The position numbers and the translations under genes were made by a program. Under the pieces are notes generated by a model, which ran no database searches, was not told the origin of the DNA, and saw nothing but the letters and a program-made list of their open reading frames with translations. Positions 38,824-58,023 of a stretch of DNA of 64,000 nt are shown here, in pieces. Source of the stretch: a virus (taxonomy: Duplodnaviria; Caudoviricetes); the IMG/VR virus record IMGVR_UViG_3300002835_000001, positions 32,001-96,000 of that record, one strand, 5' to 3'. Positions within the stretch are counted from its first letter, which is position 1. Every line of letters starts with the position of its first letter.

Positions 38824-39873
38824 TTAAATTAATGTTTTGTTAGTGTTATCTACAAACTCATATAGGTTATGAAATAGATTTTGATTTTTCCATATTTTAT
38901 TTAATTCTTTTTTAAATAAATGATGTTCAGGATGTTCGATATCCCATACTTGCTTTAATTTAAATTCACCTTCAGAGAATGTACCCCAATTAGTTATCTT
39001 ACCAAAGAATACGTTTACCTTTTTACCAAAAATAGAATACATCAGGTTATAAAATTCTTTCATTTCCATATAATTAGAATCTTGTACAACGAAGGATGTT
39101 TTCACATTTATTGGTAGAGTGCTTATGAATCTAAGATTACTTAATAAGTTCCCCCAATTACCCCCTAATCTTGTTTTATTTTCATAAGTGTCCTTTGTAC
39201 CCGCATCTATACTAATTTCACAAGTATGTACAAACTTATGAACATTTGGCATACTATCCCACATTTCTTTATTCCACATTGATGCATTTGTGTGAAGGTG
39301 TATAGATTTTAAATTTGGATATTTTTTGGGATTAAAATTTCTTAAATAATTTCTAAACCCAACCGACACAAAAGGATCTCCAGAACCTGTAATGTATAAT
39401 GTTTTTACGTATTGTGAAAAGTAATTATCAATATCTTCAATTGTCTTTTCTACTCGTTTTATACCTTTACTGTCTTCAACAATTAAATCTACCCTACATG
39501 ATGGACATTTGTAATTACAAGTCCTATCAAAATTCATTACCAAATAATCGGGTGTATTATTTGTTACAATCGGACTATTAATGTTTGAATCTGATTTTAA
39601 AGTAACAGGTCCTGATGTTACTCCGTAATTTACTAATTTACTTAAATAGGGACAAAGTTCTTTATTACAATACTTAAATGAACCATCTAATATAGAATTT
39701 CTAATATCAATAATTGGTTCGCTATTATAAACATCTTTTAATGGGATTTCACCAAGTTCTACTTTATTGGGTAACCAAGATGGACAGCACACAAAACAAA
39801 CATTGTTATGTATTTCTAACGATGTAAATGGTACACTACAAAAATAATTTTTTAAATCAATCTTATTACTCAT
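38824..39873 (-). CDS. radical SAM protein with N-terminal SPASM/Twitch-like Cys cluster
   Basis: FCSVPF..CC; RTCNYKCPSC; ITGSGDPF; HTN. Confidence 0.85.
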   Translation of the reverse strand: MSNKIDLKNYFCSVPFTSLEIHNNVCFVCCPSWLPNKVELGEIPLKDVYNSEPIIDIRNSILDGSFKYCNKELCPYLSKLVNYGVTSGPVTLKSDSNINSPIVTNNTPDYLVMNFDRTCNYKCPSCRVDLIVEDSKGIKRVEKTIEDIDNYFSQYVKTLYITGSGDPFVSVGFRNYLRNFNPKKYPNLKSIHLHTNASMWNKEMWDSMPNVHKFVHTCEISIDAGTKDTYENKTRLGGNWGNLLSNLRFISTLPINVKTSFVVQDSNYMEMKEFYNLMYSIFGKKVNVFFGKITNWGTFSEGEFKLKQVWDIEHPEHHLFKKELNKIWKNQNLFHNLYEFVDNTNKTLI

Positions 39874-41043
39874 TTAAATTAAAGTTTTAGGGATTGTTAG
39901 GTTTTCAACTTCATGGATTTTATTTAAAAAAAACTCGTTATATATTTTTTTTCTGTGTTGAAAATTAAAATATAATTCTTGGTTAAATCTACATATATCT
40001 AATACTTTGGGGGCGTCATAGATACTAGCCAGTTCTTCAGCGCTGTTTATAACTTGTGTTATTTTATCTTTACCTAACATCTCATCATAATCCTCATTAA
40101 TCACAGAATTAAATGTCTTGAATCCCATATCTCTTAAGGTTTTAAGATAGTGTTTAGATGGTGAATATATAACAAATGGGACACCTAAATAAATTGCTTT
40201 CCAGGTTTTTTCCGTCAGATGAATTGAATTTGAATATAACATTGTTTCCAATATAATATTAACTTTACTTTTATAATACCATTTGGGATTTATGGTGTAA
40301 AGATACTTTTCCATAACTAAATCAGCGCCATACATTACATCATCTTCTAACTGAATAGGGTTAAAGTTATCTACATCTATGTTTAATTCATTAAGTAATT
40401 CTTTATTTAATAGATTTTTATTTGTGCTATTTTTTACCCAGGAAAATCTAGTGTCATTTAACAACCCCATATGATATAACCTCTCAATTAATTTATATTT
40501 TTCATAACTCATTCTTCTATTTAAACATAAGAATTTTTTATCAGGTATAGTGTTAGGGTTTAATTCAGTTACATATGAATTTAAATGCTCATAGGTAGAT
40601 AAAAAGAAATTAGGAAAAAAACAGGTGTTTAATATAAAATTTCCATATTTTGTTTTACCCATACCAATTTTAGATGAATCGTTATTTACAATTATTAATC
40701 TGTTAAAATCAATTTTATTTTTTTTTAACAGATTAAAAAAATTCAAGGATAACTTATCCACCCAAAGTTCGGCTTCCCCGGAATTATTACACATAAAATA
40801 GAAATTTTCAGATTGTAATTTAATTAGTAACTCAATAAATTCACTAGAATGAGTATGCGCTATGTTTGGGTTATCGGAATTAGTCCATTCGGTTTCTAAC
40901 AAAAAAAATAAAAAATTTAATTTTGTGACATCTACCTTATCGGTGTGGATATTTTTAAATAAGATGTCACTATCTATTTTTTCGATTGAATTTCTAATAT
41001 TTGTATTTGGTAAGATATCACTATACCAAAATTGAATTTCCAT
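39874..41043 (-). CDS. hypothetical protein, possibly glycosyltransferase-like
   Basis: KKFLCLNRR; IILET..HLTEKTWK..PFVI..LRDMGFKTF..INEDYD. Confidence 0.55.
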   Translation of the reverse strand: MEIQFWYSDILPNTNIRNSIEKIDSDILFKNIHTDKVDVTKLNFLFFLLETEWTNSDNPNIAHTHSSEFIELLIKLQSENFYFMCNNSGEAELWVDKLSLNFFNLLKKNKIDFNRLIIVNNDSSKIGMGKTKYGNFILNTCFFPNFFLSTYEHLNSYVTELNPNTIPDKKFLCLNRRMSYEKYKLIERLYHMGLLNDTRFSWVKNSTNKNLLNKELLNELNIDVDNFNPIQLEDDVMYGADLVMEKYLYTINPKWYYKSKVNIILETMLYSNSIHLTEKTWKAIYLGVPFVIYSPSKHYLKTLRDMGFKTFNSVINEDYDEMLGKDKITQVINSAEELASIYDAPKVLDICRFNQELYFNFQHRKKIYNEFFLNKIHEVENLTIPKTLI

Positions 41044-41774
41044 TACAATAATGTTTTAGTTGTTTTTCTTTGGTCAAATTCTTTATAAAGATTATCATAT
41101 TTCTGTTTAAAATTATCATCGTTCTCCATTACTGAATTAAAATGTTTACTTGAATTTATTTTTTCCATTTTAAAATCTCTATTTAGTTTTTTTGACACCC
41201 AATTTTCTAATTCCATTAAATTATCAATATCAAACCAAATAATATTTGGATTGTCATTTGTGAGTTCAACTACTGGTGTAAATAATATATCTAACATATT
41301 TTTAGTATAGGGTTCTTTTTTTGAAATTTTTAACTTAGTTAAAAAATTATCAATAACTTTAGACCTATTTTCCAAATTATAAATGTCATTTGATGTGATA
41401 TTATCAAACATATCATTAGTTGTTAACTTTGAAAATTTATCAGCAATATCAAATTTATTTTTTCTGTATAATTCATCTATAATGTGTTTCCATAAAGATA
41501 AAAATCTATCATAATTGTTTCTTCTTATTGAAATAATTTGATTGTTTACACCAAATTTTTCTTGTAATATATATAATGATTCATGTGCGTGTGCTAAACT
41601 ATCCGCCAATTCTTCATTATTCATTTTTTCCCATTCATTTATTTTAATCAACTGATTATCAAGGTTTGAATTGAAATGTTCTATTGGTATCTTGTTTTTT
41701 AGACACGTAATCATAAATGATGTTGAAGCACATCTTGGTAAACTTATAAAAATAAATTTTTTATCTATTAACAT
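41043..41774 (-). CDS. sulfotransferase-like protein
   Basis: FIFISLPRCASTS (5'-PSB-like); RNNYDRFLSLW (3'-PB-like). Confidence 0.65.
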   Translation of the reverse strand: MLIDKKFIFISLPRCASTSFMITCLKNKIPIEHFNSNLDNQLIKINEWEKMNNEELADSLAHAHESLYILQEKFGVNNQIISIRRNNYDRFLSLWKHIIDELYRKNKFDIADKFSKLTTNDMFDNITSNDIYNLENRSKVIDNFLTKLKISKKEPYTKNMLDILFTPVVELTNDNPNIIWFDIDNLMELENWVSKKLNRDFKMEKINSSKHFNSVMENDDNFKQKYDNLYKEFDQRKTTKTLL

Positions 41775-42454
41775 TATATTAAATGATTTCCCTTTTCAAA
41801 TCTCTTTTCAAAATTTTCCCAAATGAATGATTTTAATTCGTCATTTACAATTATCTTATTTGGTCGTTTGGATGTTTTATTTGTGTGATTTATAATTAAT
41901 CTTTCTCCAAATCTATCTTCTATAAAATCTATAAATTTATCAATTTCACTAATGTCAAATTCGTAGGTACATTTTTTATTAGATTTGTAAAATCTTTGAG
42001 AGAGTAGAGTGTCAACCGCACCTCGAATTGGTAATTTACATTCAAAATTTTCTTTTACCAGTTTAAACCAGCATTTCCTAAATCCATCATAATCATTACT
42101 CACCAAATGTAAATTATTTAAAAAATCGGTATCAAATGTTTTATAGATATATTCATTATCAACATCCTCCCAATTACGAATTGCATTATATTCGCTTTCA
42201 AATTCTATATTATCCCAAATAAAATTTAAGGCACTTAACCATCTAAATAACCAATTACGAGTTATACAAACAGTTTCTTTATTACCCCATTGTTCTAAAC
42301 ATCGATTTAAAGGCGCATGATGGTGAGATGTTTTATCATTCTCATCAATTAATTCTAAATTTAATTTTGAGTTTCGTAATGAACTTTCAATGGAGTAACT
42401 AGCGCACTTTGGAATTGAAACCCAAATAAGTTCATTATTAATTAAATGAGACAT
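41774..42454 (-). CDS. sulfotransferase-like protein
   Basis: IWVSIPKCASYS; RNWLFRWLSA; HTNKT. Confidence 0.65.
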   Translation of the reverse strand: MSHLINNELIWVSIPKCASYSIESSLRNSKLNLELIDENDKTSHHHAPLNRCLEQWGNKETVCITRNWLFRWLSALNFIWDNIEFESEYNAIRNWEDVDNEYIYKTFDTDFLNNLHLVSNDYDGFRKCWFKLVKENFECKLPIRGAVDTLLSQRFYKSNKKCTYEFDISEIDKFIDFIEDRFGERLIINHTNKTSKRPNKIIVNDELKSFIWENFEKRFEKGNHLI

Positions 42455-42456
42455 TT

Positions 42457-42759
42457 TTATATAATTGTTTTAGTTGATTTAAACCCTTTTAAATATTCAT
42501 CTTCAACTTGTTTCCACTTTCCTAACGGACACGATCCCTTTTTATCTAAATATGTTTTGGGTGTGTATACTTTACCTTTTAATGGACAACCACATTCTCC
42601 ACATTTTAATGACCATTCTTTATTTTTATTTTTAAAAAATTCTTGTTTAGATGGACATTCTAAACAAATATCAAACCTACTATCTGCTAAGTTTTTTAAT
42701 TCATTAGAGTGTATAAGTGTATTGTACCACGCGATTGAAATTTCTTTGAAATCTATCAT
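42457..42759 (-). CDS. Cys-rich small protein (DUF6171-like)
   Basis: RFDICLECP..CGECGCPL..CPLGKW. Confidence 0.6.
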   Translation of the reverse strand: MIDFKEISIAWYNTLIHSNELKNLADSRFDICLECPSKQEFFKNKNKEWSLKCGECGCPLKGKVYTPKTYLDKKGSCPLGKWKQVEDEYLKGFKSTKTII

Positions 42760-42760
42760 A

Positions 42761-43333
42761 TTATAAGAGTGTTTTTTTGTAACTACTTTTTTCTTTTATT
42801 GCAACCCAATTAACTAATGTATATCTATTACCATTTTTAACACCAGTTACTCTGTGTTCAATATCTGATAAAAAAACGATAGTGTTACCTATTCCCTTTT
42901 CTACTTTCATTATTGAACCATCGGATAATTTTAATTCTAAATCACCTTCTTCATATTCATCATTTAGTTGTATAACTAAAGAACAATATCTTTCGTGTTG
43001 TGTAACTTCTTTTCCTGTAATATCTTTATGCCAAACAAAAAAATCACCATCTTTATATTCTGTGAATTGAAATTGACTATTTTTGTAATCTAAATCGAAT
43101 CCTTTTATGGTGATATTTTCATCTAATAATTTAGATATTTTTTCTAATATAAATGGAAATTTTTGATAATATGGATAAAACACCACATTTGATTTTCTGG
43201 TATCATAAGTTGGGGAATCATAACCAATAGTTTTTGCTGGATTTAGTATTAAATTTTCTAATGTGAAATTTAGAACTAAATTACATTCTTCTTTTGTTAA
43301 TAAATTTGATATAGATTTATATGTAAACGACAT
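42761..43333 (-). CDS. 2OG-Fe(II) oxygenase (prolyl-hydroxylase-like)
   Basis: QFTEY..FFVWHKD; IQLND.YEEGDL; EHRVTGV..GNRYTLV.W. Confidence 0.88.
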   Translation of the reverse strand: MSFTYKSISNLLTKEECNLVLNFTLENLILNPAKTIGYDSPTYDTRKSNVVFYPYYQKFPFILEKISKLLDENITIKGFDLDYKNSQFQFTEYKDGDFFVWHKDITGKEVTQHERYCSLVIQLNDEYEEGDLELKLSDGSIMKVEKGIGNTIVFLSDIEHRVTGVKNGNRYTLVNWVAIKEKSSYKKTLL

Positions 43334-43339
43334 AACTTT

Positions 43340-43870
43340 TTATATTAATGATTTTGTTTTTTTTGTTATATAGTTAACCGGCATCCAATGTAGAAAAAAT
43401 TGTAATACTCTTTGGGTTTCGTCGCATTCTAAAGGATTTCTCCAATGAACGTTTTTATCGGCATCAAATAATAATATTCCGTCGCCTATATTTGTGTGAT
43501 GTGAGTATTCTTCACCACCTATTTTAGCAAATAACGGCCATTCTTTGTTTATTGTTGACTCTAAACATATGGACATTGTTACACTTATATCTGTTCTATC
43601 TATATGTTTTGTTAAAAATGCACTATTGAAATACTCTCTGACATATGTGTTTACATTATCTAAATGTTCGATTTCATTATTGAATTCTAATACTTTTGGT
43701 TTTAGAATATCTAAATATTTATCAAAATTATATGAAGGTCTAAACCCAAAGGAAGCATTGGTATCTACTACTTTATCACCAGAAGCGTGATTTATCTTTT
43801 CAATATCAAATTGTTTAGATAAAAATACACATTCCTTCTTTGAAAGAATATTTGGAATGAAGTAAATCAT
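43340..43870 (-). CDS. 2OG-Fe(II) oxygenase-like protein
   Basis: R.Y..LTKHIDR..ISVT; GDGILF..HWR; QFFLHW. Confidence 0.8.
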   Translation of the reverse strand: MIYFIPNILSKKECVFLSKQFDIEKINHASGDKVVDTNASFGFRPSYNFDKYLDILKPKVLEFNNEIEHLDNVNTYVREYFNSAFLTKHIDRTDISVTMSICLESTINKEWPLFAKIGGEEYSHHTNIGDGILLFDADKNVHWRNPLECDETQRVLQFFLHWMPVNYITKKTKSLI

Positions 43871-43888
43871 AACCTATTATTTTTAGAA

Positions 43889-43978
43889 TTAACTATTTGC
43901 TGTTACAATTAAATTACCAATGGTAGTTAAAGTTGTGTTCAGTACGTTGATTTCTGTGTTTGTTATTATAGTTGCCAT
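43889..43978 (-). CDS. 29-aa Thr/Asn/Ile-rich peptide, not in ORF track
   Basis: manual translation MATIITNTEINVLNTTLTTIGNLIVTANS; fills the gap between the Hint protein and the oxygenase. Confidence 0.5.
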   Translation of the reverse strand: MATIITNTEINVLNTTLTTIGNLIVTANS

Positions 43979-44002
43979 ATTATTTTAATTTTTATTATTT
44001 TA

Positions 44003-45502
44003 TTAACTCCAACATATTCCTTGATAACCATTACATGTTGGACCCCATTGAGGACCACTACAATATGGTTCGTTTTTTGGACAAGTCGGACAAGTGCCCC
44101 CCCAACAACATCCCACTGGACAACCAGGTCCATTATGTTCAATCGAAACAAACGATTCATTATTTGTTGATGTGGTCTTAGTTAAAAATAAGTGTGTTCT
44201 TTCTACTGAAATAAACCAACCGGTAAATACTTTTTTAATTTGTGTAACAGATACTACTGTTTTTCTAACAAAATCCATTAACCCATCCGTTGTGTTTAAC
44301 AATAAAACCGCATCTCCAGATACCACATCAAATAAATTTTCAAATTGAACTTCATTATTTCTTTCAATCAAATACGAAGAAACTCCAGTATCCTCCCAAG
44401 TACTATTATCGTCAAAAGTTAATTGATAAAAATATGATAATTTATTAACTCTTTTTAATGCATTAATTTTGTTTGTTGAATATGTTGTACCACTTAGTAA
44501 TGTTTCATACGTTATTCCAAAATTTGCGGTATAGGATGCATTATCTGTACCATTTGGATTTGGTATATCAATTGTTTTAATTAAATCATCAACATTTAAA
44601 TCTAATGCGGTTTTAAATGTGCCGTCAGCCATTTCTACTAAATCAGTATCTAACAGTTTTGGTAACCAGTTACTATTTACAGAAGTTGTATAACTATCTC
44701 TATATTCTGAATTTATCTCATAAGTTTCTGAGTTATATTCTACATCAGTAAAAAATATATTTTCATTTAATTTAGTATATTGTCCTATATGAATTGATTG
44801 TAACGTCGGTGGGTATAATATGTTTAAACTTCTAACTACCTTTATGTGACCTTCGTAACTATTAGTGGTGTTACAGTAGTTTTCCATTAAAAAATATTCA
44901 GATGTAACATTTTCTAAAACCACATCTAATTCTTCTTGTGTTGTTACTTTATAAAATTTAGGATAAACCTCTTTATCATAGCCAGGATACCTTGATTTTA
45001 GAATAAAATTAGGGTGTACACCATTATCTGTTATTGTTGTTATAGTATTAATTAAAGTGTTGTTTTCATCTATGTAAGCAAATTGTGAACCGAACGATTG
45101 GGATTGGATAAGTTTCATAAATTCAACCTTATCTCTACAATAGGTATCATCTACCAACGCAGTTGTATCATATGCACTTCTGATAATTAATGTTTCATCA
45201 TTATCCTCTATAACTGGGATAGTAATCGACAAACCACCGATTGCGTGGTATTCATATGTAACGGAACTTCCTGTGTAGTGTGTTTCTAATGTTTTATGAA
45301 AATATTGAATATCCCCAACGTAATGTATATTTTGGAAATTATTATCAGTAACAAATTGGTATAAATTTGTTAAATCCAAACAATCCACATCATCTTCAAC
45401 TTTGGATGCGTTATCCCAACCAACTGCGGTGTTTATTTCGATGGGTTTTAAATTACCATCCTGATCGTACATAAAGTCCGAACCTATTAATACTGTTCTC
45501 AT
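44003..45502 (-). CDS. ATP-grasp-like domain + Hint domain + C-terminal Cys-rich peptide
   Basis: DFMYD.DGNLKPIEIN and FILKSRYP (ATP-grasp-like); LLDTDLVEMADGTFK..DLNVDD (Hint block A), FISVERTHLF (block F), IEHN (block G); 42-aa tail with 8 Cys. Confidence 0.7.
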   Translation of the reverse strand: MRTVLIGSDFMYDQDGNLKPIEINTAVGWDNASKVEDDVDCLDLTNLYQFVTDNNFQNIHYVGDIQYFHKTLETHYTGSSVTYEYHAIGGLSITIPVIEDNDETLIIRSAYDTTALVDDTYCRDKVEFMKLIQSQSFGSQFAYIDENNTLINTITTITDNGVHPNFILKSRYPGYDKEVYPKFYKVTTQEELDVVLENVTSEYFLMENYCNTTNSYEGHIKVVRSLNILYPPTLQSIHIGQYTKLNENIFFTDVEYNSETYEINSEYRDSYTTSVNSNWLPKLLDTDLVEMADGTFKTALDLNVDDLIKTIDIPNPNGTDNASYTANFGITYETLLSGTTYSTNKINALKRVNKLSYFYQLTFDDNSTWEDTGVSSYLIERNNEVQFENLFDVVSGDAVLLLNTTDGLMDFVRKTVVSVTQIKKVFTGWFISVERTHLFLTKTTSTNNESFVSIEHNGPGCPVGCCWGGTCPTCPKNEPYCSGPQWGPTCNGYQGICWS

Positions 45503-45528
45503 ATTTTCCTTATTTTATATATAAATAC

Positions 45529-45744
45529 TTATTTTTTATCTTTTACCCCAAACTTTATCCATCTATACCAAATCCTTTCATGTAGGTAATATTGAATAGG
45601 TTTGTATACCAATTCAGCCACGCCAAAAGTCACACCAATCTTAATTGAACCGCTTACCCACCACATTATAACAAATCCAATAAGGGTACTTACAATTCTA
45701 TATGAAATGGTTTTGGCTATGTGTCTTTTTCTTTCTACTATCAT
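45529..45744 (-). CDS. DUF2061 family small membrane protein
   Basis: RHIAKTISYRIVST..YYLHERIW. Confidence 0.85.
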   Translation of the reverse strand: MIVERKRHIAKTISYRIVSTLIGFVIMWWVSGSIKIGVTFGVAELVYKPIQYYLHERIWYRWIKFGVKDKK

Positions 45745-46124
45745 TATCCCTTTGTTTGATCATATTTAATTTCACCATCAGGTGTCATGTGACCAGTCCT
45801 AATGGCCGTTCCACTAATCGTCGATATCTCAGCTGGTGGTTCATGGTATATTACATCATAACCAACCCCTCTACCATAATTGATGCTATCAATATCTGGA
45901 ATAATAGATATTTGAATCTTCTGTGAATTTTCTCTAAAGAATGGTTCTTCACTTAGATCCATCATAACTTGCTGTGCTGTCTTGGGGTTATTTTCATCTG
46001 TGGGTACGTTCCGAATTGCAACCCACACATCTTTTCCTTTATCTAATTGTTGGTTAATAAGCCATTCGTGGCCCTTATGCCAATTTTGCCAACGTCCCAC
46101 ATACATTGCGTATTTTTTACTCAT
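45744..46124 (-). CDS. cytidylyltransferase-like (HxGH) nucleotidyltransferase
   Basis: GRWQNWHKGH; YGRGVGY; ISGTAIR. Confidence 0.8.
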   Translation of the reverse strand: MSKKYAMYVGRWQNWHKGHEWLINQQLDKGKDVWVAIRNVPTDENNPKTAQQVMMDLSEEPFFRENSQKIQISIIPDIDSINYGRGVGYDVIYHEPPAEISTISGTAIRTGHMTPDGEIKYDQTKG

Positions 46125-46555
46125 AATGATAATTTTTTTAACAGTTCATAATATGAATCTGTTTCGTTTTTTATTGTTGTGTCTATATCTATAAAATTTT
46201 CTAATGGTGGTTCATATTCCTCAACGTGGAATTGATTCCTACCCCTATCCTCTGTGGTGTGTACATAAATCTCAACAACCGATGTGCTGAATTTAAACGC
46301 CTCTCTTTGGTCTCTATATGGTGAAACTAGGGATACAATAACATTGTGCCCCTTACTATGCATGAATTGTGCGATGTATTGTGCTCTTTGAATATTTAAT
46401 CTTCTTCCTGTAATGGAATAGTCTTTATTCTTAAAGATGTCTCTTAGGTCATCCCCATCTATGTGGGTAACCTCATCTTTGGGGAAATGTTCCACCAAGT
46501 ATTTTGCCAAGGTTGTTTTTCCTGCTCCGGGTTGTCCTGTTAGCCAATATATCAT
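46121..46555 (-). CDS. cysC: adenylyl-sulfate (APS) kinase
   Basis: WLTGQPGAGKTTLA; IDGDDLR; VSLVSPY..RE; YE.P. Confidence 0.88.
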   Translation of the reverse strand: MIYWLTGQPGAGKTTLAKYLVEHFPKDEVTHIDGDDLRDIFKNKDYSITGRRLNIQRAQYIAQFMHSKGHNVIVSLVSPYRDQREAFKFSTSVVEIYVHTTEDRGRNQFHVEEYEPPLENFIDIDTTIKNETDSYYELLKKLSL

Positions 46556-46591
46556 ATTACTAATATAGTTAAAATTATTTGAAAAATCAAA

Positions 46592-46705
46592 TTAATGATT
46601 GTAAATAAATGGGTCTCTTTTACGTAATTCTTCTAATTTCTTCTTAAAACGTTTTTTACGTTTATAATCCTCAATTTTTGATTTAATCCATTTAAGTATA
46701 TTCAT
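46592..46705 (-). CDS. small basic protein (37 aa), not in ORF track
   Basis: manual translation MNILKWIKSKIEDYKRKKRFKKKLEELRKRDPFIYNH; directly downstream of the carbamoyltransferase. Confidence 0.6.
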   Translation of the reverse strand: MNILKWIKSKIEDYKRKKRFKKKLEELRKRDPFIYNH

Positions 46706-46709
46706 AGTT

Positions 46710-48374
46710 TTATTTATATATTAAATAATTACCAATAACTAATAAATCAATATCGGTATTAAAAAAGGTATACATTGCGTCTTTTGGTGTTAAGACCATA
46801 GTTTTATCTTTAATATTAAAAGACGTATTCAATAATATTGGATAACCAGAACACTTCTCAAACTCCATTAATAAGTCATAAACTAACATATGTTTGTATA
46901 CTGTTTGTATTCTTGCACTTCCGTCTACATGTGTAATTGAAGGTAGTTTATCTTTAAATTCTGGTTTTACCTGAACAATTTGATTCATATAAGGTACATC
47001 ATCAGTAACATCAAAAAAAACATGTTGTTTATCTTTTATAACCATTGGTGCAAATGGTCTAAACTCTTCTCTTTTTTTTACCAATCTATTAATTCTGTCT
47101 TTCATTTCTATTTTAGTTGGGTCAGCTAATATTGACCTATTACCCAATGCCCTTGCCCCAAATTCCATAGAACCTTGAAACCAACCAACTACTTTACCTT
47201 CGTTTAATTTTTTTGCAATATTTCTTACTAATGTTTCCTTAGACATAAATTTATAATACCGATTCCCTTTAATAGCTTCAAGTATTTGGTTCTCGTGAAA
47301 GTATGGGCCAATAAATGGGTTCTTATTAATTCTTTCTTTAAATTTATTGTTATTTATTAAATAATTAATACAAGCTCCTATTGCTGAACCAGCGTCAGAT
47401 GGGGCGGGTGGTATCCACAGATTATTGAAATGGCTATTTCTCACTATCTTACCGTTAGCGGTCCCATTATACGCACAACCCCCTCCTAATGATAAATTTC
47501 GATTATCATTTATCATATAAATCGATTTTAAGACCTCGAAAAGTATTTCCTCATATCTTTTCTGTACTGAGGCTGCTAAGTCTTTATAATGAGGTTCTAT
47601 CCCCCTTTCAGGATCCCTTGGTTCTATCTCCAGTAATTCAATTAACTTCTCATTAAACATTAACTTGTCAGATGTATTCCATGTGAATATGTCCATGTTA
47701 CAAGTTAGTTTACTATTCTTATAGTTAATTAATTTTCTAACTTTATCAATGTAAACATCTGGATTACCATAAGGTGCCAATCCCATTACCTTATATTCTC
47801 CTTCATTTGGCCTAAACCCTAAGAATGATGTCATTGCAGAATAAAATAAACCAATAGAGTGGGGGTATTCCGCCATTGATATTTTACTTATACCTTTTTT
47901 ATCTGCCAACGCCATGGACATTGTTTCATATTCACCAACACCATCTATGGATAAACAAATACCATTATCGAAATTTGAACTATAAAAAGAATAGTAGAGG
48001 TGAGAATCGTGATGGTTAGAATAAAATACCTTGTTACCATATTTTGGTAACAATTTATTTAAATTCCATATATTTTTTTTAATTTTAAAATATGATTTAA
48101 TTGAGTATATTGGATTAGTAAATAATTGACCTTTTATATTATTGATAACCCTCTTTAACTTTAATTTAGGGTTCTCGTAATAACAAATAGCCTCAACCTT
48201 ATCTTTGGTTAGTTTGTATTTTTTGTACACATAGTTTAATGAGTTAATTGGGAAAGAACTATCGTGTTTTATTCCTGTAAATTTTTCTTCTTCACAAGCG
48301 TAAACTAATTGTCCGTTTTTAAATAAACAAACGGATGAATCATGATAATATGCTGATATTCCTATTATATACAT
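46710..48374 (-). CDS. carbamoyltransferase (NodU/CmcH family)
   Basis: HDSS; EEKFTGIKH; HHDSH; IDGVGE; EGEYKVMGLAPYG; DAGSAIG; EFGARALGNRSILADP; RPFAP; VDGSARIQ; LLNTSFN. Confidence 0.95.
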   Translation of the reverse strand: MYIIGISAYYHDSSVCLFKNGQLVYACEEEKFTGIKHDSSFPINSLNYVYKKYKLTKDKVEAICYYENPKLKLKRVINNIKGQLFTNPIYSIKSYFKIKKNIWNLNKLLPKYGNKVFYSNHHDSHLYYSFYSSNFDNGICLSIDGVGEYETMSMALADKKGISKISMAEYPHSIGLFYSAMTSFLGFRPNEGEYKVMGLAPYGNPDVYIDKVRKLINYKNSKLTCNMDIFTWNTSDKLMFNEKLIELLEIEPRDPERGIEPHYKDLAASVQKRYEEILFEVLKSIYMINDNRNLSLGGGCAYNGTANGKIVRNSHFNNLWIPPAPSDAGSAIGACINYLINNNKFKERINKNPFIGPYFHENQILEAIKGNRYYKFMSKETLVRNIAKKLNEGKVVGWFQGSMEFGARALGNRSILADPTKIEMKDRINRLVKKREEFRPFAPMVIKDKQHVFFDVTDDVPYMNQIVQVKPEFKDKLPSITHVDGSARIQTVYKHMLVYDLLMEFEKCSGYPILLNTSFNIKDKTMVLTPKDAMYTFFNTDIDLLVIGNYLIYK

Positions 48375-48459
48375 TGTTTTCTATTGTATTTATAATAAAT
48401 AGTATCCTTATTTTTAGTTTCTTTCTACGGGTTTAAAATAACAATATCCTTACTGACAC

Positions 48460-49227
48460 CTATATTAATTTACTTTTTTTTGGTTCTTTATTGATGATTT
48501 CATAAACTTTTTTTGCCCAATATTCGTGAGCGTCTTCACCAAAATGTCCCCTTTTAGAATGTACGGACCATTTAAAATTGGTTTTATTAGTTAAATGTCC
48601 AAAAAAGGCTTGGTCGGTATTGTTAAACCCAATATGTTTTATTTTTTTAGTATCATCATATAACCAAAGATTATTAATGTATGATGAACTTAAAATGTGA
48701 TTTTTATCTACATCTTCTAAACTCAAAAAGGAATGTAACCCATTTAAAAATGTATATTTAATTTTAAAAGTATCTAAAAAAATAGATAAATTATTTACAT
48801 ATATTAAATTTTTTAAATTAGAATATAATATGTCATGAAAATAAACTATTGTATCTTTAAATTTTTGCAATTCCATTTTCATACCTGTTGAAGCGTATTT
48901 TAGATCATACGCTGGATTTATATTACTGACCTGATTAACGTCTGAAAAATATAATTCTTTTCTGTCAAATCCTGACCACATAACAATCACATGTAAATCT
49001 TCTATTTTACGTGATTTATTAATTAATACATTTTCAATTATCCAATCTTGGGTTGTTCTAAAAATGTATTCATTACTTGCACCTCCTACGGCAATATTAA
49101 CATATTCATCTCCAGTCATGTTGGATAAAAATTTACCCCACGATTTTTCATAACAAGATGGTTGATTTGTATATTCTATTTCAGAACCTGCGGTATGACT
49201 ACACCCATTAAATAACATTATCCCCAT
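48460..49227 (-). CDS. SGNH-hydrolase-like protein
   Basis: LFNGCSHTAG; NIAVGGASN; GHFGEDAH. Confidence 0.6.
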   Translation of the reverse strand: MGIMLFNGCSHTAGSEIEYTNQPSCYEKSWGKFLSNMTGDEYVNIAVGGASNEYIFRTTQDWIIENVLINKSRKIEDLHVIVMWSGFDRKELYFSDVNQVSNINPAYDLKYASTGMKMELQKFKDTIVYFHDILYSNLKNLIYVNNLSIFLDTFKIKYTFLNGLHSFLSLEDVDKNHILSSSYINNLWLYDDTKKIKHIGFNNTDQAFFGHLTNKTNFKWSVHSKRGHFGEDAHEYWAKKVYEIINKEPKKSKLI

Positions 49228-52200
49228 TATATTAAATTTCTTAAAATTGGTCCAGTGGCAATTGAGATTTTTTTAGATTTACTACGAAACTGTTCATGAA
49301 TTGTTTCTTTCACCAATGAATCTTTAGTTAACCATTTATATATGTTACCATTATTATTAAAGGTATCTTTAAATGACATGTCACCATGACTATTTTGTCT
49401 TTCCCATTTATATGTTTCTTCTATTTTTGGTGTCATTCCATAGTGTTTCATTTCGTGGCTAATGTTATATTGGTAATTACCCATATCATCAATTTCAAAT
49501 GAAATATTTGCAATATAATTAACAGATATACTACCCCATGATGTAATGTCTTTTTCTGGATCAAATGTTATATTAATTTTAAACCCTTTGAATATCCTAA
49601 ATAAACCATAGAATATTGGTAAAAATTCATTTGCAATGTTTGTACTTAAAAATGAGGTTGACATATCTTCAGTTATTAACTTGAAGTTAATGTTATCGTC
49701 TTGCGGTATATATTCATCAATATTGATGTTTGATGTCTCAAATGTAAAACATTCAGTAATATCTCCATGTCTTTGTGCATTTTCTACAACACTACCTGCG
49801 AAGTCCTTTAATATCTCTAACCAAATATGAAAACACTTAATTCTTACGAAACGATTTAATTGTGTATTTTTGTATCCATGTGTGTACCAATTACCAAATA
49901 CTTGATTGTCCCATATTCTTTCTTGCCAAGCTATTCCGTAAATGTCAAATCTTTCTTGTAAATCACTAAGTGCACTTGGTCCGCAACCCATACCCGGACT
50001 TAATTGATGGATATACTTTCTCACATTATAAATTAAAATATTACTATGATAATAATCGATATGTTCTTCTGTTGGGAATCCGATTAACCAATTAACGTGA
50101 GTCCAAATTTTTTGAGTCAAGTATGTGTCTTTTAGATTGCTTTCAATTTCCCAAATCTCAATTCTTTTTCTCATATCATTAAGAACCTTTTGACTACCTG
50201 ACTCAACCCCGTAACTTAATGCGGTACATCCCGAATCTGCAATCTTATTGATAAATTCTTTGGTCATTCTACCATCACATCTACTGTAACTATTCCAACC
50301 AATATCTAGTTTATTTTCAATAATTAAATCCACCAGTTTTTGAAAATTAGCAAGGTTACCATTTACCAAACTATCCACAAACCAAAATCTTCTAACACCA
50401 TATGTTTCAATTTGATACTTCATTTCCTCAACTACCCTTTTTGGTGTCATAGATCTAAATCTCCAAAAATAAGTTTCAGCACAAAAACTACATTGAGCAA
50501 CACATCCTCTTGATGTTTCAATACTAACACCATCTTTATGTAAATAAGATTCTAAATCGTAATCCGTAAAATCGGCATACGCTTTATCATCTAAATTTAA
50601 TCTACTATTTGAATCACCAATAAAAACACCTTCACTTGGTAATCTCTTTAAATGTGTTTCATCATTTAAAAAGTTTACAAAACTTTCTTCCGCTTCACCT
50701 TTAAAAAAGTAATTAACATACTTTGAAAATTGTGATGACAGTAACCACGCTTCGGTTGACACTGCTGGTCCGCCAACAACAATTGCAACATTGGGTAATT
50801 TCTCTTTTAATTTTTTTACCATTAATAGAGTTGCCTGACTGTTAGTGGTATACATACTGAACCCAATAACGGTTGGTTTATCTAATACAATTTTATCCAC
50901 CGCAGCATTTAAAAACGGTTCTATTTCTTTTAAAAGATACTTATTAAAAAACCAAGAATCTTCCCAATAGAAAAACTTCTCCGATCTCCAATAATCTTCT
51001 CCTGTCCTTTCAATTAAATTATGATATAATTGAACATTTAAATCATATACTTTACAGGCAAATCCTTCCTTTCGTAATGTACCAACAATCTTAGATAAAC
51101 CATATGGTGGGAAAATAACACCCCAACTTGGACATATCGCCATTACAACTCTCTCACGTCCCTCATTAAAATCTTTTAATGCTGTTGGTTCGTTAAAATT
51201 TTGATATTTTAATTGTCCATTAACACCTATATGTGCTGACGCATGATTCATCGGCATTTTAGTTGTTGATTGTACATCCCTTTCTAAAATATGTTTTAAA
51301 ATTAATTGGTCTCTATCCGCACCAATCGATTCAATTTGTTCTTTTAATTTAATTGACTCTTCATTAAAATATAATTTATCAATGAATGAACACGTTGGGT
51401 CAAATCCAACTAATACCGTGTTGTTAGGTAAGTTGTACATAAATTCATTATACTTTTCTTCAATTTTACTTAACCCTATAAATGAGTTGGTAAAATCGGT
51501 ACAATAAATGTTTGATATACTGATATAATTTTTTTGTCCATCGACTTTATCTAATAATGATTTAGGGTTTTGTATTAAATCAATATGTAATAATTCAACA
51601 TCTAACGTTCTAAATTTGTCTAAAAATTCATAAAATAGGTTTTCTCCCCCGAAGTAATCAAAAGTTCGATTTAAACTTAATAAAAAGTTATTTGTGAATT
51701 TTCCATCAATACCAAATACCTTTTGTCCCATTCCTAAAAAATGAAAAAAATTATTATCACTAAATTGGTTAATTAACAGTTTAATGTCTCGTATGTTACT
51801 TTTATAAATTAAATCAATCCACGCTAAACTCTTTTCATTAAAATCATATATGATTAATTTACCACCTTCTTTTAAATGATTACTCTTTAATGAATCTAAA
51901 AATTTAAACCCACCCGCAGGAACCGCAATTGTGTCAAACTTATTATTTTTATACCCATAGGTTAAATTCATATCTTCTGAATTTAATAACCATATTTGAT
52001 TTTTAATTGAATTTGGTATTTGTAATAGCTTAACTTGGTTTATGTTGAGGGTGGTATCAACTGTTTGTGTTTTTAAACATTCTAAGAATCTATCGCTGTT
52101 AGATTCGGGATAATAGTACGTTCTTTTATTTCTTATTGTTTCATTCCAATTGATGATATCAAATCCGTTCTTTAGTGATTCATTAATAAATTTCCACCCT

Positions 52201-52742
52201 TGCTTTTGGTGGTATTGTTTTTCGATTTGTCCCGTATTTTTAATCCATAGTGGTGTGTAGTCATCGTGAAAATTTTCAACACTTCTTTCTATTACAACTA
52301 AATCATCCTCCTCATATTCCCATCCACCATATTCGGGTTTACCTGCTTTTACCCAATTTTTAGTGTTAACTAACACAAATTGATGATGCAATTCATACCA
52401 AAGTTCTTTCCATTCTAATATATGACCCGCAGCCATATAATTTGGATTTTTAAGAATTTCATTTTTAATGTCAAATATTATTGAGCTATCAAAAATACGA
52501 ACTCCCGCCGCCATGAATAATATGTGGTCATATTTTTCATAATTCTCTTCTAATGCTTTATATATTGATTCACTTTCAAAAACGTCAATTGTTTTATTAG
52601 AAATTTCATTGATTCTATAGGAATAGAATTTAGTAAATTCAACCATTCTTTTAGATAACTCTTCGTTATGAAGTGTATCTGAAGGAAATATACAAATTGA
52701 AAGATTAATGTCGTTTATAAAACTATCGTGAATTATGTCCAT
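49227..52742 (-). CDS. 1171-aa fusion: unassigned N-terminal half + cobalamin-binding radical SAM enzyme
   Basis: PPYGL..L...G..DLN; VIGFS; IVVGGP; GEAE; SRGCVAQCSFC; SYGVESGS; IGFPTE. Confidence 0.85.
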   Translation of the reverse strand: MDIIHDSFINDINLSICIFPSDTLHNEELSKRMVEFTKFYSYRINEISNKTIDVFESESIYKALEENYEKYDHILFMAAGVRIFDSSIIFDIKNEILKNPNYMAAGHILEWKELWYELHHQFVLVNTKNWVKAGKPEYGGWEYEEDDLVVIERSVENFHDDYTPLWIKNTGQIEKQYHQKQGWKFINESLKNGFDIINWNETIRNKRTYYYPESNSDRFLECLKTQTVDTTLNINQVKLLQIPNSIKNQIWLLNSEDMNLTYGYKNNKFDTIAVPAGGFKFLDSLKSNHLKEGGKLIIYDFNEKSLAWIDLIYKSNIRDIKLLINQFSDNNFFHFLGMGQKVFGIDGKFTNNFLLSLNRTFDYFGGENLFYEFLDKFRTLDVELLHIDLIQNPKSLLDKVDGQKNYISISNIYCTDFTNSFIGLSKIEEKYNEFMYNLPNNTVLVGFDPTCSFIDKLYFNEESIKLKEQIESIGADRDQLILKHILERDVQSTTKMPMNHASAHIGVNGQLKYQNFNEPTALKDFNEGRERVVMAICPSWGVIFPPYGLSKIVGTLRKEGFACKVYDLNVQLYHNLIERTGEDYWRSEKFFYWEDSWFFNKYLLKEIEPFLNAAVDKIVLDKPTVIGFSMYTTNSQATLLMVKKLKEKLPNVAIVVGGPAVSTEAWLLSSQFSKYVNYFFKGEAEESFVNFLNDETHLKRLPSEGVFIGDSNSRLNLDDKAYADFTDYDLESYLHKDGVSIETSRGCVAQCSFCAETYFWRFRSMTPKRVVEEMKYQIETYGVRRFWFVDSLVNGNLANFQKLVDLIIENKLDIGWNSYSRCDGRMTKEFINKIADSGCTALSYGVESGSQKVLNDMRKRIEIWEIESNLKDTYLTQKIWTHVNWLIGFPTEEHIDYYHSNILIYNVRKYIHQLSPGMGCGPSALSDLQERFDIYGIAWQERIWDNQVFGNWYTHGYKNTQLNRFVRIKCFHIWLEILKDFAGSVVENAQRHGDITECFTFETSNINIDEYIPQDDNINFKLITEDMSTSFLSTNIANEFLPIFYGLFRIFKGFKINITFDPEKDITSWGSISVNYIANISFEIDDMGNYQYNISHEMKHYGMTPKIEETYKWERQNSHGDMSFKDTFNNNGNIYKWLTKDSLVKETIHEQFRSKSKKISIATGPILRNLI

Positions 52743-53415
52743 ATAATGTATTAGTGTAAGTTATTGAATCGTTTAATAATTTAGGATTAATCCATCCATG
52801 AACAATTACATGGTATCTATCTTCGTTAGAATTATTCCAAACCGCGTGTTCATTTCCTAAATCAAGGAATACACCTCTACCTTTTTTAAATGGGACTAAT
52901 CCATGGTCTTTAAATACGAACTGACAACCCTCAGGGTTGTTTATTGCTATATTAAGTGGTCCAAAAATTCTTCCTTTACCATCGGTGTGAGGCATAACAA
53001 ACCCGCCAGACTCTAACTTCATAATTCTAACTCTATCATATTGTTCATATCCTAATGATTTTATAAAGTTAGTTAATTTTGGGAGATATTCGCAAACATC
53101 GGTCCAATGATAATTCGCCTCTTCTTGCGTGTTGAATCCGTATCTGTCGAAGTGTTCTGTCTTAGTCGAATCGATTCCGTGTAACGTCACTGCGTTCCAT
53201 CCTTCGTGATTATATGATTTAAGTTTATCTTTATCCCTATGTTTGACAAAATATGTTTTTTCTAATAATTTAATTTCTTCTAACATCCCATCAAAATCAT
53301 TATCAAAATCAATCACAGAGTACGGCCAATTACAATTTGTATCAAATATATTTTCAGGTATACCATTAGATGTCCAACTATTAGTTAACGCGTCATCAAA
53401 AAAATTTTTTATCAT
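52723..53415 (-). CDS. aspartyl/asparaginyl beta-hydroxylase-like 2OG-Fe(II) oxygenase
   Basis: RVRIMKL..GG..PHTD; EHAVWNNSNEDRYH. Confidence 0.8.
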   Translation of the reverse strand: MIKNFFDDALTNSWTSNGIPENIFDTNCNWPYSVIDFDNDFDGMLEEIKLLEKTYFVKHRDKDKLKSYNHEGWNAVTLHGIDSTKTEHFDRYGFNTQEEANYHWTDVCEYLPKLTNFIKSLGYEQYDRVRIMKLESGGFVMPHTDGKGRIFGPLNIAINNPEGCQFVFKDHGLVPFKKGRGVFLDLGNEHAVWNNSNEDRYHVIVHGWINPKLLNDSITYTNTLYGHNSR

Positions 53416-54386
53416 ATTAATTTCTTTTTTACCAACTCTGGGCTTCTTTTACTTATCATAACATCTGTTGCACAATGACAAATATGCCATGGACAGGTAA
53501 TAGGACCAGTTGGCCATTTTATTTCCTCTAATTTATTAATATTACCAAGATTAAAACCAACACAATTACCTCGTTTTATTTCACCATCGGCAAAAATAAA
53601 TAAAGATTCTAATCCAATGTCACATTGATACCCAAAGAAATTACTTAATCCTTCATTAATGTAGTCAACAGCATCTGCTTTTGTATCAACGGTACCGTCA
53701 GATAAAATAAAATGTGCACCAATTAATGCTGTTTTATTAACTGTTGGTATTAATGTTTTTGTGTTAACTCTATTGTCACCTTTAAACCATTCTAATTGTT
53801 CTTCAGTATAAACCAACGTATCTCTATCGAGTTGGTCCCAATCAAGTATTTTTACTGCCTCCATATTAAAATATTGCATCACATCACTTTCCTTAGTTGT
53901 ATTAAACATATTAACGGCAACCTCCCAATGTTTTGGATCCATCATAATCCTTAAAGAACAATAACAATTATCTACAGATGCTTTAATTTTTTCAAGAACT
54001 TTATTCTTATCACCATATTGTGGATGATAAGAAAATACTATATAATTAACATATTTTGATAGTTCTGAATAATATTCAACATTCCTTGTCCCATTTGATG
54101 TTAAACCAACTGTACTTCCCTTTTCATGTATCATTTTACACAAATCAAGTAAAAATGGTGACATTGTTGGTTCACCTCCAGCGATTGATACGTGTATTTT
54201 TGGATATCTTACAAATAATTCATCGAAGAACTTTTTAACCTCCTCCCAAGTGTAACCATGATTATGTCCACTATGTAAAGCATCGACACAATAAGCGCAT
54301 TTATTAGAACATATTGTATTAATTACCCACGTTACCTGTAAAACGTCAGGATGGTTATTAATTACTTCATTTATTTTTACTCTCAT
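53412..54386 (-). CDS. radical SAM protein
   Basis: NTICSNKCAYC; AGGEPT; TSNG; C-terminal CPWHICHCATD. Confidence 0.85.
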   Translation of the reverse strand: MRVKINEVINNHPDVLQVTWVINTICSNKCAYCVDALHSGHNHGYTWEEVKKFFDELFVRYPKIHVSIAGGEPTMSPFLLDLCKMIHEKGSTVGLTSNGTRNVEYYSELSKYVNYIVFSYHPQYGDKNKVLEKIKASVDNCYCSLRIMMDPKHWEVAVNMFNTTKESDVMQYFNMEAVKILDWDQLDRDTLVYTEEQLEWFKGDNRVNTKTLIPTVNKTALIGAHFILSDGTVDTKADAVDYINEGLSNFFGYQCDIGLESLFIFADGEIKRGNCVGFNLGNINKLEEIKWPTGPITCPWHICHCATDVMISKRSPELVKKKLI

Positions 54387-55363
54387 TAATCAAAAATTTT
54401 AATACTTTCAATGCCGTTAACTTGTGAGAACACTTCTCTGTTCCATCTAGTCTTACAACTTTCATCTCCTATTGCCCACGCTACGGATGGTCCCGATGGT
54501 GTAAACCATTTAGAAACATCCGACTCAATTGACAACATAGAATCGTCAATAATTATTCTTCCCAATTTATATCTACCTAAAGATAATTTGTGCATGTTAT
54601 CAATCGGTACTTTTGATTGAACCTCTGGTGATAGAGATAAATACCAACCATAAAAACTCTCACGAATAGTATTGGTCATATCAGGACCAAAGTTCATCCA
54701 TGTTTCGGGAGCAAATCTAATTTGTGGTCTAACTTCATCACGTGCAATAACCTCCCAATCATTTTCAGGTGCTATTGATAGATAGTCTTTTCCTAATGTA
54801 TTATAACCACAATATAATCCACCCCATTCAAATCTATCTTCTAAAAATAACTTATCAATTTCAGTCACTGGTTCGTGTAAACCTGCAGGTAAGAAATCAT
54901 ATAAACAACTAAAATTTGGGAATTTGTGATGTAATCCATGTATGGCAGTTTCGATCATGTGAATAAATTCATTTAAAGATAAAAACTTATCGTGTAATTC
55001 ATATGACCACTTTTCTTTAGTTTGTAATTCTACGATTCTATCACCATACACTTCAAATTCTTCATGAAGATAGTTTAAAATAACACTATCTAATTGGTTG
55101 AAATCTGTGAACGTTGGTAGAACTTTATCATAGTGTTCATTAATAAAAACTAACACTCCGTTAATTTGTTCCATTAAATAACCAATGTTATTCATTTCAT
55201 TGTTGGTTATTCTGGCCTTAATTTCCATTTCTTTTTCTAAAGATTGTTTTGTCATAGATACCCATCTATCAACGACCGGATTTTGGTCATATAGATTATA
55301 CGCTACTGGTAATGTACCTCCGTCTTTTGTTGTAAATACAACTTTTAATACTGCCTTTGCCAT
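54386..55363 (-). CDS. hypothetical protein
   Basis: ORF track; LNYLHEEFE and YNTLGK motifs; no family recognised. Confidence 0.75.
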   Translation of the reverse strand: MAKAVLKVVFTTKDGGTLPVAYNLYDQNPVVDRWVSMTKQSLEKEMEIKARITNNEMNNIGYLMEQINGVLVFINEHYDKVLPTFTDFNQLDSVILNYLHEEFEVYGDRIVELQTKEKWSYELHDKFLSLNEFIHMIETAIHGLHHKFPNFSCLYDFLPAGLHEPVTEIDKLFLEDRFEWGGLYCGYNTLGKDYLSIAPENDWEVIARDEVRPQIRFAPETWMNFGPDMTNTIRESFYGWYLSLSPEVQSKVPIDNMHKLSLGRYKLGRIIIDDSMLSIESDVSKWFTPSGPSVAWAIGDESCKTRWNREVFSQVNGIESIKIFD

Positions 55364-55365
55364 AA

Positions 55366-57937: not shown

Positions 57938-58023
57938 ATATTCTATATTAATATATACATTTTAATTGAATTTATCAAGGAGTTAATTATATGATTTTTC
58001 TCACATAATTGGTCTGAAAACGG

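Follow-up and report, generated by a model that had tools for sequence, protein, structure and literature searches.

The window analysed here is a stretch of 64,000 nucleotides (nt) of viral DNA (positions 32,001 to 96,000 of the IMG/VR record IMGVR_UViG_3300002835_000001, Caudoviricetes), and the gene in question, referred to as the target, is an open reading frame (ORF) on its minus strand at 44003–45502. The ORF was confirmed and encodes a protein of 499 amino acids (aa) made of three parts: an ATP-grasp ligase-like domain (residues 1–278), a degenerate Hint domain (residues 282–457) and a short cysteine-rich tail (residues 458–499), called the cargo below. An earlier note on this DNA, made from the sequence alone, had placed the Hint domain at 44132–44659 and the tail at 44003–44131, and these boundaries were reproduced exactly, the 42 codons of the tail being 44006–44131 with the stop codon behind them. 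The features within the gene are as follows.

44669–45502, minus strand: predicted circularly permuted ATP-grasp domain (glutathione synthetase / GspS / YgiC-like), residues 1–278, from a structure model and conservation
44132–44659, minus strand: predicted degenerate Hint domain, residues 282–457, from profile, model superposition and column statistics
44132–44137, minus strand: codons of H456-N457, present in 62/62 sequences of alignment A2
44132–44134 (N457) and 44129–44131 (G458), minus strand: predicted scissile bond after the terminal Asn of the Hint domain
44006–44131, minus strand: hypervariable 42-aa cargo with 8 Cys, residues 458–499, followed by the stop codon at 44003–44005
44075–44077, minus strand: K476, the only Lys of the cargo (motif C-P-K), with C474, P475 and K476 invariant in alignment A1

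Domains of the target protein

The target belongs to a large family. A word-indexed search returned 781 clusters (90% identity) at E <= 1e-3, most of them 485–502 aa long with 96–100% of the query aligned, and an exhaustive HMMER search of 50%-identity representatives gave 253 clusters, 96 of these at E <= 1e-30. Conservation was assessed on alignment A2, which comprises 62 diverse homologues that are 23–78% identical to the target with a mean column identity of 27%. A closer alignment, A1, formed the basis of a search for related loci, and the ORFs of 82 loci were clustered into families to provide neighbourhood counts. Only eight residues of the whole 499-aa protein are invariant in A2, namely E22, N24, R108, D118, P181 and R224 in the first domain and H456 and N457 at the end of the second.

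Residues 1–278 are predicted to be a small member of the circularly permuted ATP-grasp clade, in agreement with the likeness to glutathionylspermidine synthase (GspS) that the earlier note had recognised. The model of this domain has a predicted local distance difference test (pLDDT) score of 94.6 and, in an exhaustive structural comparison, its top matches are YgiC (7uka, Z 8.1, 196 residues aligned, root mean square deviation (rmsd) 4.2 Å), GSS22 (5oeu, Z 7.9) and GspS (2io7, Z 7.7), together with nematode and plant glutathione synthetases (Z 7.4–7.9) and the E-64 ligase Cp1B (Z 7.0). Foldseek finds eukaryotic glutathione synthetases at E 1e-5 (probability 1.0), and model residues 2–246 map to glutathione synthetase residues 120–452. 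Matches from the permuted clade (YgiC, GSS, GspS and Cp1B) align from model residue 1, whereas RimK, LysX/ArgX, Ddl and GshB do so only from about residue 55.

The Mg-binding hairpin (D9 and E22-x-N24) comes first in the chain, and the motif around E22-x-N24 aligns with the E-F...E-M-N Mg-binding motif of biotin carboxylase at a sub-threshold E of 0.28. Besides the six invariant residues of the domain (62/62), D9 and K169 are each found in 61/62 sequences; K169, within F-I-L-K, and an L-x-E-Y motif fit the usual ATP-grasp pattern and were assigned by that pattern, not by superposition. The conserved Mg ligands, K169, R108 and R224 argue for an active enzyme. The Pfam GSP_synth and GSH_synth_ATP models do not match the target at E up to 10.

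Residues 282–457 are assigned to the Hint fold by two independent routes, a sequence profile and a structure model, which bear out the Hint-like region that had been proposed for modelling. When the profile of the 62 homologues is compared with the Protein Data Bank (PDB), the KlbA intein (2jmz) is matched at E = 2.2e-6 over positions 287–446, followed by the VMA intein, Tetrahymena BIL2, PolII inteins and Hedgehog. The AlphaFold2 model of the target (pLDDT 87.8; predicted template modelling score 0.84) limits disorder to residues 461–499, and Foldseek searches with this model find inteins, BIL2 and Hedgehog at E 1e-7 to 1e-5. With VIA-align, model residues 282 to 457 superpose onto the first to the last residue of many inteins, BIL2 and Hedgehog (Z 12–15, rmsd 2.5–3.0 Å, 135–150 residues aligned). 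This full-register set includes Mtu RecA, Ssp DnaE and PI-PfuI, and for BIL2 (6tmm) the values are Z 14.9, 2.6 Å and 145 aligned residues.

Since the alignment runs in register from first to last residue, K282 falls at the position of Cys1 and N457 is the terminal Asn. The Cys1 column contains Lys in 23, His in 19, Ile in 7 and Leu in 5 of the 62 sequences, and the target thus has K282 in place of the position-1 nucleophile (Cys, Ser or Thr) of inteins. The block B Thr-x-x-His, sought through the KlbA alignment and the column statistics of the 62 sequences, is absent; the position of its His is taken by G373, in a variable column that never contains His. Position 13 of block F, H437 in the target, is His in 24 and Asp in 22 of the sequences, and both H456 and N457 are retained in all 62. 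A Lys at the Cys1 position, the loss of the block B His (read from a TxxH motif) and the retention of the terminal His-Asn had all been noticed in the target earlier, and each is now supported.

In inteins, Cys1 and the block B Thr and His (B:7/B:10) serve the N-terminal acyl shift, and F:13, the G:6 His and the G:7 Asn serve Asn cyclisation, with C-terminal cleavage being possible alone (PMC4031507). The residue at +1, directly after the His-Asn pair, is variable in the target family (Tyr, Ala, Phe, Leu, Gly and others), with Cys in 2/212 tails and any of Cys, Ser or Thr, as found at +1 of the C-extein in inteins, in only about 24/212. Lacking Cys1 and the block B His, and with a +1 position that is mostly non-nucleophilic, residues 282–457 are judged not to be an intein. 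The domain looks like a Hint domain that has been reduced to its C-terminal cut.

The cargo holds eight Cys in its 42 residues, compared with three in the preceding 457 (binomial p = 3e-10). Among 110 close homologues the mean pairwise identity is 0.72 for the ligase, 0.65 for the Hint domain and 0.35 for the tail, the last figure falling to 0.225 when Cys positions are left out. One pair of homologues is 92% identical up to N457 and 28% identical in the tail, which points to exchange of the cargo as a cassette. Pooled Nei-Gojobori ratios of nonsynonymous to synonymous substitution (dN/dS) in close pairs are 0.14 for the ligase, 0.12 for the Hint domain and 0.32 for the tail, and the tail dN of 0.20 is four to five times higher than the 0.04–0.05 upstream. 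These values indicate a tail that changes fast, overall positive selection not being shown by this crude measure.

The number of Cys residues is even in 169/170 short tails (109/110 close and 60/60 distant), with values of 4, 6, 8, 10 and 12, and it is this evenness that favours disulfide pairs over metal clusters. A tail that is hypervariable but Cys-patterned was what the earlier note had expected of homologues, and that is what they display; its suggestion of a metal-binding peptide becomes the less likely option beside disulfides. Lys is present in 173/174 short tails, the exception being a truncated entry, and exactly one Lys is found in 136 of them, with Arg absent in 124/174. The cargo Lys is placed either mid-tail (C-x-K) or at the extreme C-terminus, and Lys is also present in members with almost no cargo and in the C-exteins of the extra Hint domains described below. 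Nothing usable came from a feature search on the 42-aa tail.

In distant homologues of 997, 1129, 1232, 1585, 1627 and 1667 aa, the match to the target ends at query residue 457–459. What follows the His-Asn pair in about 100 representatives falls into several classes, the commonest being a Cys-rich peptide of 30–60 aa. In others the pair is followed by hundreds of residues with BACON domains, by a Cys-rich peptide and then a Peptidase_S74 intramolecular chaperone (P0244, 25.3 bits; cutoff 22), or by a Cys-rich part and then a canonical Hint domain with Cys1, T-x-x-H-P and terminal HN (PT-HINT and Intein_splicing above cutoffs); cargo-less members have tails of 5–7 residues only. The extra Hint domain has the Cys-rich part before it and one or two terminal Lys residues after it. 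Single-Hint relatives carry these Lys residues directly, and the extra domain is read as a putative bacterial intein-like (BIL; mini-intein) insertion, not a second release device. The idea that this second Hint domain proves a two-sided excision of the peptide was dropped, as its placement fits an insertion.

Companion genes and the shared C-terminal tag

The features around the target in the window, again all on the minus strand, are listed below.

43889–43978, minus strand: micro-ORF of 29 codons, amphipathic-helix-like, ending A-N-S, which starts 25 nt after the target stop
42457–42759, minus strand: predicted zinc-ribbon-like partner, 100 aa, six Cys, ending K-T-I-I, present in 81/82 loci
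42761–43333, minus strand: prolyl 4-hydroxylase (P4H)-like 2-oxoglutarate (2OG)-Fe(II) oxygenase, 190 aa, ending K-K-T-L-L (PF13640, E 5e-12)
41774–42454, minus strand: F3, sulfotransferase-like, 226 aa, with a paralogue at 41043–41774
43340–43870, minus strand: F10, 176 aa, ending K-T-K-S-L-I, with no significant Pfam match
38017–39873, minus strand: F6 (268 aa) and F7, a radical S-adenosylmethionine (SAM) enzyme (349 aa; Radical_SAM PF04055, E 9e-8), both tagged
45529–48374, minus strand: untagged upstream block of a DUF2061 membrane protein, a 126-aa HxGH nucleotidyltransferase-like protein, an APS kinase and a carbamoyltransferase, from Pfam matches

The micro-ORF is one of two small companions of the target. 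An equivalent of 24–30 aa is found 9–51 nt past the target stop in nearly every distinct locus and carries the motif I-G-x-L-I-[VI]-x-x-[NH]-S, with [NH]-S at the C-terminus. A 41-aa version ending N-A-H-S is present at the cargo-less locus L087 (4001–9401), where the family member has a 7-residue tail (4 Lys) and is accompanied by a SET-domain protein, three 2OG oxygenases and a biotin/lipoyl-domain protein.

The partner, about 95 aa in the family as a whole, is missing from only one of the 82 loci; in distant members it is the immediate neighbour of the target, and this holds even for a contig of 2 kb. Beside the two-Hint and BACON variants it is recognised by hhalign with probabilities of 99.7% and 99.6%. 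Across the family it has six conserved Cys, spaced as in a zinc ribbon, and ten of its residues are invariant (W11, A25, R28, C35, C53, C56, C58, K63, C77 and W82). Its zinc-ribbon and DC1 matches are weak, and a search against Pfam gave only noise. A match in Roseobacter phage CRP-143 (E 3e-4) was rejected as spurious, since it spans three annotated genes. The partner is taken to be an obligate helper and is predicted to be zinc-ribbon-like. A predicted complex of the whole target with the partner has a median score of 0.17 (mark 0.32), which says nothing for or against binding.

At locus L083 (150–7562) a 1667-aa BACON-bearing member stands upstream of a tail sheath gene and is separated from it only by the partner gene, an arrangement that may tie the large-cargo variants to the virion. 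Loci L038 and L064 are parts of the same 211-kb IMG/VR contig, which carries two target–partner pairs about 38 kb apart that are 47–52% identical to the query. The two companions, the single tail Lys and the members with large or almost no cargo had all been missed by the earlier note.

Many of the neighbouring proteins share a C-terminal tag, K-x-[TS]-L-[IL] or, in a broader form, [KR]-x-[TSN]-[LI]-[LIF], which was followed in the window (38017–54386) and in loci L003–L082. The tag is carried by 33–90% of members in the partner, 2OG, F3, F4, F6, radical SAM, F10 and F17 families and by no member of the carbamoyltransferase, APS kinase, F5 and DUF2061 families. The P4H-like 2OG oxygenase family is found in 71/82 loci, usually as 2–4 copies each. 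F3 is present in 64/82 loci, in the gene order target–partner–F3, and its feature search led to Sulfotransfer_2-bearing viral clusters, which is a lead only, with no Pfam match. F10 occurs in 32 loci, with the tag in 90% of its members, and F6 and F7 occur in 43 and 42 loci with tag frequencies of 0.33 and 0.68, respectively. The upstream block is found in 31–43/82 loci with a tag frequency of 0 and has the same gene order in L001.

The cluster of tailoring enzymes that the earlier note had described around the gene is retained in part: the P4H-like 2OG oxygenases, the sulfotransferase-like F3 and one radical SAM enzyme travel with the target, but the B12-radical SAM and SPASM genes mostly do not. 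The latter belong to a radical SAM gene run at 49227–59421 (minus strand), which includes a 1171-aa B12-binding radical SAM protein, a SPASM-domain protein and an Asp/Asn beta-hydroxylase-like gene. As its genes are common to only 0–8/82 related loci, the run probably lies outside the core system. In other loci a SET-domain protein or a Trp-halogenase-like enzyme is added, which suggests different tailoring sets in different lineages; at L086 (4718–9788) and L089 (1234–4897) family members adjoin Trp-halogenase-like flavoenzymes, and L086 also has a radical SAM enzyme.

Further features of the window were recorded in passing. No Pfam family matches a 1450-aa ORF (33609–37961, minus strand), and related loci contain hardly any counterpart of it. 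The thymidylate synthase at 13586–14779 (minus strand) is oversized, at 397 aa compared with about 265, with insertions at about residues 89–144 and 231–278; an intein was ruled out, these being two plain insertions. The only tRNA of the window, tRNA-Arg (CCG) at 31198–31288 (minus strand), lies at the switch between a plus-strand glycosyltransferase block and a minus-strand block. No Rfam family was found in the window at the gathering threshold.

The target family looks phage-borne. It is carried by 80 IMG/VR loci, on contigs of up to 335 kb, and the GTDB representatives (one genome per species, 185,579 prokaryote species) contain it on a single 2-kb contig. Relatives adjoin a tail sheath gene and also gp32, UvsX and RNase H genes, and feature searches place neighbouring proteins in Uroviricota clusters. 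The gene is absent from 50,697 deposited phage genomes searched with tblastn. At least 14 metagenome runs from lakes or fresh water contain near-identical DNA, and four freshwater RNA-library (metatranscriptome) runs have short contigs that match parts of the target (window 44081–45498), several with 0–1 differences. As RNA libraries may also contain DNA, these contigs hint only weakly at transcription, and stretches that lack them give no evidence of silence.

Proposed mechanism and rival explanations

With Cys1 and block B lost and the block F His or Asp, H456 and N457 kept, a single cut at N457–G458 is to be expected. The Hint domain would make this cut once, by Asn cyclisation, and so free the 42-residue cargo with its eight Cys and single Lys. 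Self-cleavage at N457 is considered likely. Once in an oxidising environment the freed cargo would probably become disulfide-bonded.

A possible role of the ligase is to modify the cargo of its own chain in cis, through an amide bond to the epsilon-amine of the Lys or to the new alpha-amine. Three features point to the cargo as the substrate of the ligase, namely the constant fusion, an active site that looks intact and a lone Lys retained where the rest of the cargo varies, and the prospects of this are put at slightly less than even. Enzymes of the GSS/GspS clade activate a carboxylate, often that of a peptide C-terminus, which is passed to an amine. In the target system the most likely donor would be the conserved C-terminus of the micro-peptide encoded by the micro-ORF, with the tag-bearing proteins as an alternative, and the micro-peptide is put forward only tentatively in this role. 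The tagged oxygenases, the sulfotransferase-like proteins and the radical SAM enzyme may then decorate the product.

On balance the target is more likely than not a self-processing precursor that unites a ligase, a C-terminal-cleaving Hint domain and a Cys-rich cargo. A one-chain self-processing system was also what the earlier note had in mind; its domains and C-terminal cleavage residues are supported and it remains the best reading, whilst the label 'RiPP-like' (ribosomally synthesised and post-translationally modified peptide) holds as an analogy only. A fuller proposal, which is speculative and more doubtful than probable, is that of an ATP-dependent conjugation system in which the ligase joins the C-terminus of the micro-peptide or of a tagged protein to the cargo Lys or new N-terminus, and the Hint domain then releases the conjugate. 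This would be isopeptide chemistry of a ubiquitin- or Pup-like kind reached by a new route, and the product would be a hypervariable, disulfide-rich, decorated peptide directed at the host surface or against host defences.

Several points weigh against the self-processing precursor. Both cleavage and ligase activity are predictions from sequence and models, and the target as a single sequence finds no match among PHROGs, PDB sequences or, up to E 10, Pfam families, so the reading draws on homologues and models. The ATP-grasp fold match is moderate (Z about 8), and the ATP-binding Lys and hinge residues were assigned from sequence pattern only. The model of the tail has a pLDDT below 50. As the target protein lacks a signal peptide, its disulfides would have to await lysis or export. 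The second canonical Hint domain of some members is not independent proof of excision. Moreover, members with tails of 5–7 residues exist, so a fused cargo cannot be the only purpose of the module, and cargos above 1000 aa fit poorly with 'peptide maturation'.

One rival explanation, which is considered unlikely, follows the logic of polymorphic effectors. The ATP-grasp and Hint domains would be a conserved carrier and release device, the C-terminus a toxin or an anti-host or anti-competitor effector, and the substrate of the ligase, a small molecule or a host target, would have nothing to do with the cargo. A conserved N-terminus, a Hint domain and an exchangeable C-terminus are the template of polymorphic toxins, in which HINT is the releasing peptidase (PMC3482391), and the target family also exhibits cargo swaps between near-identical bodies and, in one homologue, a weak PT-HINT match (E 3.4e-4). 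However, the protein lacks a signal peptide and any domain for secretion or trafficking, the N-terminus of the target being a strand of the ATP-grasp domain in the models, and Pfam searches of the target and its homologues detected no toxin domain. Furthermore, the small genes next to the target are kept throughout the family and do not co-vary with the cargo as immunity genes do, and the single conserved cargo Lys and the constant ligase fusion suggest a chemical link.

A rival of similarly low probability dispenses with cleavage altogether. The Hint domain would be a degenerate spacer within an intact protein, and the Cys-rich tail a metal-binding or disulfide-stabilised binding tip, such as that of a virion adhesin. 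Hint domains without catalytic residues are known as scaffolds, and the position of the 1667-aa BACON-bearing homologue upstream of the tail sheath gene and the presence in some members of the Peptidase_S74 chaperone, which is typical of tail fibres, both favour a structural role. What speaks for a working cleavage site instead is that H456-N457 is invariant in a Hint domain with otherwise about 27% column identity, that the block F His or Asp is kept and that conservation ends precisely at N457. The parity of the Cys residues, with counts of 6 and 10 being common, stands against simple metal clusters.

Head-to-tail cyclisation, in which the ATP-grasp domain would join the C-terminal carboxylate of the cargo to the N-terminus freed by the Hint cut to give a cyclic cystine-rich peptide, is very improbable. 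Enzymes of the GSS/GspS type are generally known to activate a peptide C-terminal carboxylate and many tails end 0–3 residues past the last Cys, but cyclisation does not fit cargos of 100–1200 aa or tails of 5–7 residues and leaves the conserved single Lys and the micro-peptide unexplained. Least credible of all is class 2 (KlbA-like) splicing, in which a downstream Cys would attack the N-terminal junction and the ligase would become joined to the tail as the Hint domain is excised: the best sequence match is indeed the KlbA intein, itself without Cys1, and a Cys lies 2–5 residues after the His-Asn pair in most members, but the +1 residue is so rarely Cys, Ser or Thr, and both the block B Thr/His for activation of the N-terminal bond and a conserved extein junction are absent.

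Related systems and significance

Taken singly, the two parts of the target, its permuted ATP-grasp ligase and its Hint releasing domain, are of known kinds, and it is their combination for which no published description was found; literature searches on Hint with ATP-grasp and phage, and on Hint with cysteine-rich and bacteriophage, returned no account of this architecture. The closest relatives of the releasing half are the pretoxin-HINT (PF07591) and A-type BIL domains, which likewise lie just before an exchangeable C-terminus, end in His-Asn, have no +1 nucleophile and have been proposed to act in autoproteolytic release (PMC3482391; PMC4031507). Unlike these, the target lacks Cys1 and the block B Thr-x-x-His, so that only the C-terminal reaction would be possible, and it matches no Pfam Hint model. 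Its Hint domain is fused to an ATP-grasp ligase and not to secretion, RHS or filament modules, and it is phage-borne, with conserved helpers as neighbours instead of co-varying immunity genes.

For the ligase half, the permuted enzymes glutathione synthetase, GspS, Escherichia coli YgiC/YjfC and the fungal Cp1B of the E-64 pathway, the last being an amide-forming ATP-dependent ligase of this clade (PMC12568646), share with the target a Mg-binding E-x-N hairpin at the start of the chain and acidic and Asn Mg ligands. The target domain is smaller, at about 278 aa as against 370–600, is only about 10–12% identical to them (Z 7–8), has no Pfam GSP_synth or GSH_synth match and is fused to a Hint domain and a peptide.

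The arrangement as a whole recalls the borosin (omphalotin) precursors such as OphMA, in which an N-terminal modifying enzyme is fused to its own C-terminal core peptide and acts on that tail before release. The borosin enzyme is a SAM-dependent methyltransferase and a separate protease is required, whereas the target would employ an ATP-grasp domain as the enzyme and a built-in Hint domain as the releaser, the cis action of the ligase being, as above, a proposal. LysX/ArgX with LysW, RimK and the tubulin tyrosine ligase-like enzymes (TTLLs) resemble the proposed system in that an ATP-grasp enzyme links an amine to the carboxylate of a protein or peptide. ArgX/LysX, RimK and TTLLs are among the fold matches of the target ligase at Z 5–6, but their topology is the classical one, without permutation. 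The small zinc-ribbon protein LysW, which functions together with its ATP-grasp enzyme, invites comparison with the zinc-ribbon-like partner; the latter, however, lacks an acidic C-terminal tail and ends in a basic-hydrophobic tag.

Engineers obtain C-terminal-only cleavage by mutating the Cys1 of inteins. If the Hint domain of the target cuts as predicted, it would represent a natural module for C-terminal cleavage that works in a single turnover, is widespread and has been favoured by selection in hundreds of phage lineages for the release of a rapidly diversifying cysteine-rich peptide. Possible uses would include a compact self-releasing tag and a library of natural disulfide-rich scaffolds. 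The ligase fusion, the single Lys, the micro-peptide and the zinc-ribbon-like partner point to an undescribed route of peptide maturation or conjugation. A conjugation route could also explain why unrelated tailoring enzymes of these phages bear a common C-terminal tag, and the system offers a testable entry into the role of the many small 2OG oxygenases in aquatic phages.

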